Part shown: positions 2,955 to 4,357 of the stretch, in pieces
Layout of the letters: every line of letters starts with the position of its first letter
Position numbering within the stretch: the stretch's first letter is position 1
Assembly: GCF_003334815.1 (NCBI RefSeq)
Contig: NZ_QOWO01000076.1
Direction: 5' to 3' (one strand)
Source: Escherichia coli
GTDB lineage: Bacteria; Pseudomonadota; Gammaproteobacteria; Enterobacterales; Enterobacteriaceae
DNA length: 4,596 nt
Made by a program: the position numbers and the translations under genes
Notes under the pieces: generated by a model
The model's input: the letters and a program-made list of their open reading frames with translations, nothing else
Told to the model about the DNA's origin: nothing
Databases searched by the model: none

Positions 2955-3129
2955 TGAGCTGACCACACTCACGTGGGTGGACTGGTATAACAATCGACGA
3001 TTGCTGGAAAGGCAGGGCCATATCCCACCGGCAGAAGCAGAAAAAGCTTATTATGCTTCCATCGGAAACGATGATCTGGCAGCCTGAGTTCACAGATAAA
3101 ACACTCTCCAGGAAACCCGGGGCGGTTCA
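2955..3129 (+). mobile_element. 3' terminal fragment of an IS629/IS3411/IS1203-like (IS3 family) element: last ~44 codons of OrfB plus the right terminal inverted repeat
   Basis: Frame 1 translates to ...DELTTLTWVDWYNNRRLLERQGHIPPAEAEKAYYASIGNDDLAA* with the stop at 3085..3087, a typical IS3-family OrfB C-terminus. The following sequence GTTCACAGATAAAACACTCTCCAGGAAACCCGGGGCGGTTCA (3088..3129) matches my recollection of the IS629 right end (...CCCGGGGCGGTTCA). Homology starts near 2955; the 5' ~1.1 kb of the element is absent. Confidence 0.75.
2956..3087 (+). pseudogene. IS3-family transposase OrfB, C-terminal fragment only (IS629-like)
   Basis: This is the coding part of the IS629-like fragment, with the same translation as above. 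The frame is closed by TAA at 2935..2937 upstream and there is no start codon or DDE core, so it is a remnant. Confidence 0.7.
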
Positions 3130-3164
3130 CTTAGCCGCGTGTCCATTATTGCTGGATAAGATCA
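3127..3164 (-). repeat. Solo IS3-like left terminal inverted repeat (~37 bp), cut off on its inner side by the IS629-like end
   Basis: The plus strand reads CACTTAGCCGCGTGTCCATTATTGCTGGATAAGATCA, whose reverse complement TGATCTTATCCAGCAATAATGGACACGCGGCTAAGTG matches the IS3 IRL as I recall it. It is a direct repeat, 35 of 37 identical, of 4321..4357. The IS629-like ...GGTTCA terminus overlaps or abuts its inner end at 3127..3129. Confidence 0.7.
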
Positions 3165-3424
3165 TAACGATACACCGGGTTAAACAGGTGGTCACTGCTT
3201 CACTGAAGCTGCGTGATTATGATGGTCAGGTAGCAGAAGCTATGCCCATGATACCAAAATGACGAAAGCCGAAATGTCTGAAAGCGTGTGTATTACCTGA
3301 AAATATGACCGGCTCCGGGGTACGTAACCGATTCAACAAAGCCAATCGATATTACAAAACGAGAGGGACTATATATTTCGTTTTCAGATAAGACTCCTTG
3401 AGAGATTATCTTTTATGTAAAATC

Positions 3425-3718
3425 TCAAATATCACCTGATGTAATGTCAATGATAATATTAAGTGCGCTCTGAACAACATCTTTCTTGGTGTGATTAACA
3501 TCTGACAAAAAGAACATCAGCTTCTTTATTATGTTCTTGTTGTTTATTATTTCACGCTCACAGAATAAAGCGTTGACTGCCTCTTCTATGACATTTCTCT
3601 CGTAAAAAAATTGAGAGTTAGCTTCATATAAAATATTGGCCAATTTTTCACCAAAAACCATATTATAATAATCACTGTGCATCTTTCTCCCCCAGGGTTC
3701 AATCAATAATTTTACCAT
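3425..3718 (-). CDS. Hypothetical small protein (97 aa from the first ATG; 85 aa from the internal ATG at 3682, which has a strong RBS); no recognisable family
   Basis: The only ORF of 60 aa or more in the AT-rich 3400..3980 segment that looks real. The internal start MHSDYYNMVFGEKL... is preceded by GGGGGAGAAAG (Shine-Dalgarno about 4 nt upstream). Composition (K/E/N/I/L-rich, slightly acidic) suggests a small helical protein. About 270 bp of AT-rich non-coding DNA lies upstream of it on the minus strand. Confidence 0.5.
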   Translation of the reverse strand: MVKLLIEPWGRKMHSDYYNMVFGEKLANILYEANSQFFYERNVIEEAVNALFCEREIINNKNIIKKLMFFLSDVNHTKKDVVQSALNIIIDITSGDI

Positions 3719-3984
3719 GCCTAATTATGACAGGTGTAACAAGCATATTTTGCTATATAAATAAAATACATAATACTGATTATTGTAAGAACAGGAAGCA
3801 GACTAATGGTTTTTTTTGTGAGCACATTCCTTCTTATGTAGGAAGAGGCTGTATTATATTCAGTCAACTCTTTTTTACTAAAAACATTATCTATGCCATC
3901 AAAGTTGCCTGCTAGCTAATTTTTAGGATATCGCCTTGTCGTGGATTATGCACTCTAAACATGTAGAAGGTATTCATTACAAAT

Positions 3985-4357
3985 ACACAGACGGCCATCT
4001 TTTGTAAAATGGATGCCGTTTTAAGTGAGATTCTGATTTTCAAATTGTTCCGGACTGAGACCGCCACACCAACTGTACCATCGCCAGCGATTGTAATCGC
4101 ACTCGATATAATTAAGTAAGTTTGCTGATTTTGCTGTTTACTGCGACAGATGTAAAGCTGTGGTGATTCATGCAGACTAAGTTCACGGACTCCGGCAGTA
4201 ACACCGATGCATTCTGCAAGCTTCAGATCTTAACTACGAAATTCATGCGAATGGTGTTTACGTTTTTTTACTGGTTGAAACTGTTTTGTCTTGTGAGTCA
4301 CCTCTGACTGAGAGTTTACTCACTTAGCCGCGTGTCCACTATTGCTGGGTAAGATCA
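3985..4357 (-). mobile_element. Internally deleted, decayed IS3-like remnant: left IR, the first ~50 codons of a dead orfA fused to the last ~30 codons of orfB, then a diverged right end
   Basis: The reverse complement of 4261..4357 reads TGATCTTACCCAGCAATAGTGGACACGCGGCTAAGTGAGTAAACTCTCAGTCAGAGGTGACTCACAAGACAAAACAGTTTCAACC, i.e. the IS3 IRL and orfA 5' end as I recall them, but with the start codon changed (ATG to AAG) and a 1-nt deletion. Homology to orfA (...RSKQQNQQ) stops near 4118 and jumps to the orfB C-terminus ([29 protein letters not shown], stop at 4021..4023). Sequence 3985..4020 resembles the IS3 IRR only weakly (~21 of 39), so the lower boundary is uncertain. Confidence 0.7.

Follow-up and report, generated by a model that had tools for sequence, protein, structure and literature searches.

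Introduction

In copy-out/paste-in insertion sequences (IS), the 3'-OH of the donor inverted repeat (IR) attacks the DNA that flanks the recipient IR, a fixed few nucleotides (nt) away from it, and in the IS3 family it is the 3' CA tip of the donor IR that the transposase nicks (PMC7780238). IS629 (with IEE), IS30 and ISApl1 also undergo transposase-dependent deletions, with microhomologies of 2-4 bp and sizes within a few bp of that of the element, which have been attributed to 'sloppy' strand transfer or to strand switching in copy-out replication (bioRxiv 10.1101/2023.06.07.543989). In these cases a single intact element supplies both partners, its left and right IRs (IRL and IRR). We describe here a locus with similar deletions and a different substrate: in a 4,596-nt stretch of Escherichia coli DNA (contig NZ_QOWO01000076.1 of assembly GCF_003334815.1; referred to, at its full length, as the window), from an IS-rich region upstream of fecIRABCDE, two direct IRLs of dead IS3-type elements lie about 1.2 kb apart, and the segment that they bracket, with its small AriR-like gene, has been deleted in part of the species. 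Nested IS remnants and orphan IRs of the same kind are found in IS-dense islands, such as those flanking fec in E. coli and Shigella, and by comparison nothing here is unusual in kind; the particular stack of elements and its broad population distribution are what is specific to this locus.

Results

Two IS3 left ends bracket a segment of variable presence

A repeat search of the window returned a single direct-repeat family, of 42 nt (3127-3168 and 4320-4361; 93% identity, spacing 1193), the copies of which differ at three sites (3146 T vs 4339 C, 3156 A vs 4349 G and 3165 T vs 4358 C). It contains the 37-nt cores, 3128-3164 and 4321-4357, that a first-pass annotation of this DNA had described as direct repeats with two differences, and the identification of both, in that annotation, as IS3 IRLs in direct orientation is borne out by BLAST against the IS3B copy of strain K-12 and by a pattern search. 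With up to 3 mismatches allowed, the 35-nt IRL pattern matches the window exactly twice, both times on the minus strand—at 3130-3164 (copy 1; 2 mismatches) and at 4323-4357 (copy 2; none)—the chance expectation from 200 shuffles being 0.00, with no match in any of them. Copy 1 (3164 to 3127 on the minus strand) aligns with IS3 nt 1-38 (36/38), or 33/35 over the IRL; copy 2 and its inner sequence match IS3B at 215 of 241 positions, with identity throughout the IRL (35/35) and, when the leader is included, over 66/66 nt. Both have the terminal 5'-TG...CA-3' of the family. The IS3-derived part of copy 1 is 35 nt, 3130-3164: because the tip of an IS1203/IS629-type element ends at 3129, the TCA at 3127-3129 belongs to that tip and its agreement with IS3 nt 36-38 is coincidental. 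The 4 nt outside the tips, TAAC for copy 1 and CAAC for copy 2, are flanking DNA. No sequence resembling the IS3 IRR was found in the window at 3 mismatches or fewer. We conclude that the repeats are genuine and that each is the left end of its own IS3-type insertion sequence, both of these being dead.

Comparison with related strains for structural variants, suggested by the same annotation, revealed just such a variant, a deletion between the repeats. Among 5,426 complete E. coli genomes, the two-copy form, defined by coverage of at least 80% of segment 3050-4420, is present in ~1,574, and a single-IR form, from which the bracketed segment is gone, in ~415 (414 with the junction at full coverage). 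Carriers of the latter include EC958 and JJ1886 (both of sequence type (ST) 131), Nissle 1917 and ATCC 25922. Strain EcPF18 has the same neighbours as the window (IS66, a phytase-like gene, an IS1203-type fragment, IS1, fec), with one IR and no intervening DNA.

The flanks indicate which form came first. In the left flank (2,990 bp compared), five single-IR genomes show 0-1 single-nucleotide polymorphisms (SNPs) relative to the two-copy genome 7/2, and two-copy genomes are up to 22 apart; in the right flank (3,900 bp), the distance of single-IR genomes is 2-4 SNPs to 7/2, 1-3 to E. coli B and 11-15 to other two-copy haplotypes, the two-copy forms differing among themselves by up to 15. Since the single-IR flanks are nested in two-copy diversity, the single-IR form is a deletion derivative. 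The two-copy architecture is itself old, because the inner 1,196-bp segment of strain TO6 differs from the others at 22-23 sites.

Deletion endpoints lie at or near the IR tips, out of register with the repeats

In the window, where nothing is lost, copy 1 reads ...CCATTATTGCTGGATAAGATCA / TAACGATAC across its tip and copy 2 reads ...CCACTATTGCTGGGTAAGATCA / CAA CACTTT. The common deleted form reads ...CCATTATTGCTGGATAAGATCA / CACTTT, with 3165-4360 (1196 bp) missing and 1 nt of microhomology; a second form, that of strain KL53, reads ...GATCA / ACACTTT, with 3165-4359 (1195 bp) missing and 2 nt of microhomology (CA). The common junction, ...GGATAAGATCA|CACTTT, accounts for ~411 genomes and the KL53 type for 3, of a distinct haplotype: the right flank of KL53 is 20-26 SNPs from all others, and its left flank has two private SNPs that recur in a metagenome contig with the same junction. 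A further origin of the common junction in PF9285 was considered and rejected, the distinguishing SNPs all lying in IS1, where gene conversion is likely.

Both types keep the copy-1 alleles (T3146, A3156) right up to the tip, so that the left endpoint is 3164|3165, and both have their right endpoint beyond the copy-2 tip at 4357, by 3 nt in the common type and 2 nt in the KL53 type. The CAA directly outside the copy-2 tip (4358-4360; flanks listed for 14 loci) is kept in all the two-copy and copy-2-only genomes sampled, lost in the common type and partly lost in the KL53 type. The common deletion is thus of 1196 bp, against a repeat period of 1193 bp. When the in-register product (IR followed by CAA CACTTT) was used as a synthetic query on the 5,426 genomes, the best of 415 full-coverage matches reached 99.3% and the matches were the out-of-register forms. 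Likewise, a scan of metagenome contigs with a pattern in which both stub lengths, both IR alleles and a gap of 0-6 nt ahead of CACTTTAAAATGCC were allowed gave five matches, four of the common type, one of the KL53 type and none in register. The "recombination-prone pocket" of the first-pass annotation therefore stands insofar as what the ~415 genomes lack is exactly the bracketed segment, but in-register recombination is probably not how they lost it, the endpoints being at or near the IR tips.

Two other accounts of the polymorphism have to be set against deletion initiated at the IS ends. Ordinary recombination or replication slippage between the 38-bp repeats would remove 1193 bp in register, a small deletion of CAA or CA from the flank following; we regard this as unlikely, if worth keeping in mind, for 93% identical repeats 1.2 kb apart are a classic substrate of RecA-independent deletion, the loss of the intervening DNA is common to that process and to this locus, and the flank of the expected product, GATC-ACA-ACA-CTTT, would yield the common junction, GATC-ACA-CTTT, on slippage loss of one ACA unit. 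What the recombination account leaves to be explained is why the junctions are 2-3 nt out of register, with microhomologies of just 1-2 nt, while the in-register product is found neither in the genomes nor in the metagenome contigs, and why a small additional deletion should have occurred at one and the same place in two lineages. The alleles also argue against simple repeat recombination, since crossover in the longest identical block, at the inner end of the repeats where it is likeliest, would give copy-2 alleles, and copy-1 alleles are observed as far as the tip. The other account reverses the polarity, making the single-IR form ancestral and the 1.2 kb an insertion beside the copy-1 tip. 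It can point to KL53, a divergent haplotype that is single-IR, but we find it barely credible: besides the nesting of single-IR flanks within two-copy diversity, it requires an insert of 1195-1196 bp that has neither a target duplication nor a plausible left end and whose start, midway through an IS5-family gene, coincides exactly with an IS3 tip, and the IRL1-IS903 and IRL2-CAA junctions are each present independently elsewhere.

Copy 1 is an orphan stub between two other insertion sequences

Copy 1 (3130..3164, minus strand, tip at 3164) consists of IS3 nt 1-35 only, in agreement with the earlier description of one IRL as solo. On its inner side is the 3' fragment of an IS1203/IS629-type element of the IS3 family (2951..3129, plus strand), inserted in IS3 copy 1 and comprising the orfB C-terminus (2956-3087) and the right IR tip, ...GGGGCGGTTCA, at 3129. 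PGAP annotates an "IS3 family transposase, missing N-terminus" pseudogene at the equivalent position, the fragment matches the C-terminal positions 344-369 of 369 in the NCBIfam model transpos_IS3, and the window from 3050 to ~3129-3133 is 98-100% identical to annotated IS1203/IS629 copies, the matches stopping there in many differing contexts; the fragment thus has both the tip (...CCCGGGGCGGTTCA) and the orfB C-terminus of an IS1203/IS629-type right end. On the outer side of copy 1, 3165..3344 (plus strand) is the 3' remnant of an IS903-type element of the IS5 family, the host of the copy-1 insertion. It holds a transposase C-terminus and a terminal repeat, ...TTCAACAAAGCC, ending at 3344, that matches the ends of an intact IS5-family element; PGAP calls an "IS5/IS1182 family transposase" pseudogene here, and the translation of 3170-3253 resembles residues 277-304 of the intact IS5-family transposase (64% identity, E 2e-9, blastx), the reading frame picking up 5 nt past the copy-1 tip. 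On its outer side, copy 1 breaks into an IS903-type transposase gene; on its inner side it is cut off by an IS1203/IS629-type right end.

An 18-bp deletion within copy 1 (3130-3147; loci L006, L007 and L003), starting exactly at the IS1203-type tip (GGTTCA|ATTGCTGG), was seen in the two-copy chromosome BN01 and in many plasmids; it is the third tip-anchored event in this pocket. The IS903-type repeat also meets the AT-rich segment in more than one way: window 3344-3372 reads AAAGCC-AATCGATATTACAA-AACGAGAGGGACT and 4165-4180 of the Salmonella plasmid L016 reads AAAGCC-AACGAGAGGGACT, a difference of 14 nt. Together with the different isoforms involved, this may point to IS903-type insertions at nearly one spot that were independent or replaced.

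Copy 2 heads a decayed IS3-like element

The earlier observation that the other IRL leads into a dead orfA also holds. To judge by its alignment, element 2 is an internally deleted and decayed minus-strand IS3-like copy: IS3 nt 1-238 occupy 4120..4357 (IRL copy 2 at 4323-4357 with its tip at 4357, leader, dead orfA; assigned by BLAST to IS3B) and nt 1134-1227, the orfB C-terminal end, occupy 4022..4115 (88% to K-12 IS3B; a PGAP pseudogene), so that the nt 238 side is joined to nt 1134 with internal deletion of ~895 bp. There are three indels, and the start codon of orfA has changed from ATG to AAG at 4292-4290, with frameshifts following. The element is mosaic. Its first 66 nt (4292-4357, IRL and leader) are identical to IS3B and the remainder of nt 1-238 (4120-4291, 172 nt) ~85% so, which suggests that the tip region may have been gene-converted by resident canonical IS3 copies. 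At the other end a degenerate right IR (3991..4021, minus strand) has lost its tip, with ACGGCC in place of TGATCC; it matches 14 of the 31 terminal nt of the IS3 IRR, a score that ~1% of local 31-mers equal, its sequence is unchanged across four divergent haplotypes, and the tip is destroyed in all those examined.

The spacer and the target duplication of IS3 are 3 bp. The outer 3-bp flanks here are TAA (3165-3167) and CAA (4358-4360); the partner end of copy 1 is lost, and the 3 bp beside the degenerate IRR of element 2 are CAG, as against CAA at its IRL end, this IRR being too degenerate for a target duplication to be called. Compared with the K-12 element, then, copy 2 reproduces IS3B nt 1-66 exactly and both copies keep the family's ...CA-3' tip, but copy 1 is bodiless and element 2 is ~85-89% identical beyond nt 66, short by ~895 bp and devoid of a usable right tip. 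Neither IS3 copy is functional: orfA and orfB are not intact, a usable IRR is missing and no target duplication can be demonstrated.

The two ends probably derive from separate insertions

We favour two separate insertions, rather than one element or a tandem dimer, as the origin of the two IRLs; this view of the sequence rests on nested-insertion logic and on the occurrence of the copies apart from each other elsewhere. In plasmids such as pMRE162, copy 1 and the IS903 remnant run into IS1, and copy 2 is absent. Conversely, E. coli B and UC4224 have copy 2 with its CAACAC flank and no copy 1, and in the Salmonella IncF plasmid L016 copy 1 is again missing, while the IS5-family element is intact and the AriR-like gene, element 2, IRL2-CAACAC and IS1 are all present. 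As a strict empty site L016 is only partly valid, since near the insertion point the IS5-family element that it carries is of another isoform (64% amino-acid identity).

Separate insertions followed by deletions was one of two origins offered in the first-pass annotation, and it has fared better than the other, a former tandem or duplicated IS3 arrangement. Descent of both IRLs from a dimer, or from a segmental duplication that included flanking DNA, would account for the repeat running 4 nt past the IS3 tip (TAAC vs CAAC) and for p2-Ec387, a plasmid in which both flanks are CAAC; nevertheless a match at 3 or more of the 4 flank bases has a chance probability of ~5%, and we treat the AAC shared just outside both tips as coincidence or local gene conversion. 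A dimer would have its ends abutted with a 3-bp spacer, whereas these tips are 1193 bp apart and no IRR adjoins either IRL; a duplication is at odds with the inner flanks, which are unrelated (IS1203-type tip in one, IS3 nt 36 onward in the other), and with copy 1 breaking an IS5-family reading frame where copy 2 has a different flank. With each copy found without the other in other replicons, a shared origin by either means is decidedly improbable. More improbable still is that the IRLs are relics of a composite transposon, two direct IS3 copies carrying the AriR-like segment. The segment is indeed present on E. coli and Salmonella plasmids, and a block corresponding to 2951-4357 occurs at 99.1% identity in an unrelated plasmid context, ending exactly at the IRL2 tip; its left boundary (2951), however, is no IS3 end but a point within the IS1203-type fragment, matching target duplications are absent around the block, the IS3 copies are fragmentary with the right tip of element 2 destroyed in every haplotype examined, and L016 has the segment with element 2 only.

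Several of these replicons merit description in their own right. The p2-Ec387 block (L017 3785-5192, window 2951-4357) is the whole two-copy arrangement in an unrelated IncF/IncX context beside yacAB; its edges are exactly the truncation point of the IS1203 fragment, 2951, and the IRL2 tip, 4357, beyond which there is a new flank, GTCGGAGG, and copy 1 has the outer flank CAAC in place of TAAC. In TO6 (L008, matching up to window 4337) IRL2 ends 20 bp short of its tip and is joined to a polysaccharide deacetylase-capU-virK-lpxM module in place of IS1-fec, which shows that the AriR-like pocket travels with different cargo. In E. coli B ATCC 11303 (L009, window 3351-4420) everything left of ~3351 is replaced by IS1A, which abuts the sgc genes, so that the AriR-like gene and copy 2 are kept and copy 1, the phytase-like gene and IS66 are lost. 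UC4224 (L010 2937-4195) has, at the copy-2 position next to IS1-fec, a full-length frameshifted IS3 variant, 95% identical to IS3B, and a different upstream context with dGTPase-family and H-NS-family genes. This IS3 is probably a recombinant of canonical IS3 and the remnant; with flanks of ATG and CAA, it was uninformative as a source of a target duplication for the copy-2 position.

The AriR-like gene and other features of the window

As the first-pass annotation had it, the small open reading frame (ORF) and the deleted IS3 remnant lie between the repeats, together with the IS903-type remnant, which went unnamed there. The ORF (3425..3718, minus strand, 97 amino acids) bears the PGAP product name of the YmgB/AriR family and matches Pfam YmgB/AriR (PF10798; E 7e-6, model positions 2-59 of 59); it has no NCBIfam match. 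It lies in an AT-rich segment (3345..3990; 29-36% GC in the composition profile) that is conserved in E. coli chromosomes and in plasmids of E. coli and Salmonella.

To the right of copy 2, CAA and a 67-bp flank are followed by the end of an IS1 copy (4428..4596, beginning GGTAATGACTCC...; a PGAP IS1 family transposase pseudogene, with K-12 IS1F matches starting at 4428), which separates the pocket from ykiE-fecIRABCDE. The 67-bp spacer contains a perfect 12-bp palindrome, CCCTATATAGGG, at 4373-4384, around which PGAP places tiny hypothetical ORFs. To the left, 1316-2689 (minus strand) is an intact gene for a 457-amino-acid protein with an apparent signal peptide, annotated "esterase-like activity of phytase family" and without an NCBIfam match; it sits between an IS66-family element and the IS debris and is kept on chromosomes and many plasmids. 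The IS66-family tnpC frame at 40-1077 opens at an internal ATG, since the window begins inside the gene, and related loci have a complete tnpA-tnpB-tnpC element upstream.

Discussion

Separate insertions, decay and then deletion initiated at the IS ends are, in our judgement from the sequences, the probable explanation of this locus as a whole. An IS903-type element would first have sat beside the AT-rich segment, and IS3 element 1 would have landed in its transposase gene; an IS1203/IS629-type element would have inserted 35 bp from the left tip of element 1, with deletion of the IS3 sequence further in, to leave the 35-bp orphan IRL. Element 2 would be a separate insertion in the same orientation ~1.2 kb away, which lost ~895 bp, its orfA start and its right tip and kept a perfect IRL. 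Neither element is able to move; both keep an intact end, predicted to bind transposase, with the ...CA-3' tip on the same DNA strand. IS3 transposase acting in trans, from intact IS3 copies elsewhere in the cell, could then nick both tips, and the copy-1 tip would be joined 2-3 nt beyond the copy-2 tip, whether by aberrant same-strand transfer or by repair of the nicks at 1-2 nt of microhomology; alternatively, staggered breaks at both tips might be followed by loss of the 3-nt 5' overhangs. The deletion would remove the IS903 remnant, the AriR-like gene and element 2, creating the single-IR alleles of ST131, Nissle 1917, ATCC 25922 and others. All three routes—same-strand transfer, staggered breaks, and nicks with microhomology ligation—reproduce the junction sequences and are not told apart by them.

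The anatomy of the locus, its polymorphism among genomes, the direction of the change and the junction sequences are shown by the data; the involvement of a transposase we infer by analogy with the documented cases. A left endpoint exactly at one IR tip, a right endpoint 3 or 2 nt past the other and microhomology of 1-2 nt fit transposase-dependent deletions such as those of IS629 with IEE, IS30 and ISApl1, the last in its loss from Tn6330. As there, the endpoints are 0-3 nt from the tips, and the deletion size is within 2-3 bp of the tip-to-tip distance, comparable with a size scatter of ~2.4 bp in the documented systems (bioRxiv 10.1101/2023.06.07.543989). The difference is that two direct IRLs of dead elements would here take the place of IRL and IRR, with transposase provided in trans. 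The figure-eight reaction of IS911, IS3, IS2 and ISCth4 is similar in that the donor tip is joined a fixed few nt outside the second IR, here 3 and 2 nt; in its canonical form the tip is linked to the spacer and recipient IR, whereas at this locus it is linked to DNA past the spacer and the recipient IR is lost. Deletion by the canonical geometry was rejected, since direct repeats would lead to inter-strand attack and hence to inversion or breakage. More tentatively, then, orphan IS3 left ends might be a live pair for transposase in trans, deletion being near-deterministic with the tip joined 2-3 nt beyond the recipient tip; as part of that proposal, and with the same reserve, the deletion could be seen as a same-strand variant of the figure-eight reaction.

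Several points weigh against IS-end-initiated deletion between separately inserted elements. The inter-strand attack predicted for the canonical figure-eight means that non-canonical ("sloppy") transfer or nick repair must be assumed. The two junction types are 1 nt apart, and a 1-nt indel combined with flank divergence or recombination could reduce them to one event; loss of an ACA unit, as described above, could produce the common type from an in-register recombinant. The region also moves horizontally, as seen in the near-identical island of ST131 and ST73, so that counts of genomes are not counts of events. Finally, there is the isoform difference near the insertion point in L016.

As a kind of feature this locus is already known, being composed of nested IS remnants and orphan IRs that PGAP flags as a run of pseudogenes, IS1203-type within IS3 within IS903-type, beside IS1 and IS66. 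In a limited literature search we found no paper describing the locus itself or a fec island structure specific to it. What is modestly new is a deletion between two orphan IRLs that is tip-anchored and out of register and that is seen at population scale. A common presence/absence polymorphism (~1,574 genomes with the segment, ~415 without it) has orphan IRs of 35-38 bp as its exact boundaries; through it, lineages of clinical importance, ST131 and ST73 among them, have lost an AriR/YmgB-family gene next to the fec operon, and the junctions speak against simple repeat recombination and for deletion initiated at an IS end. If this is true, natural populations would offer a counterpart of the transposase-dependent loss of ISApl1 around mcr-1, and it would be unwise to presume IS fragments inert when genome stability is predicted. 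And if orphan ends are indeed a live pair, dead IS stubs would be chemically active, with a footprint of that activity fixed in the extraintestinal pathogenic E. coli lineages ST131 and ST73.

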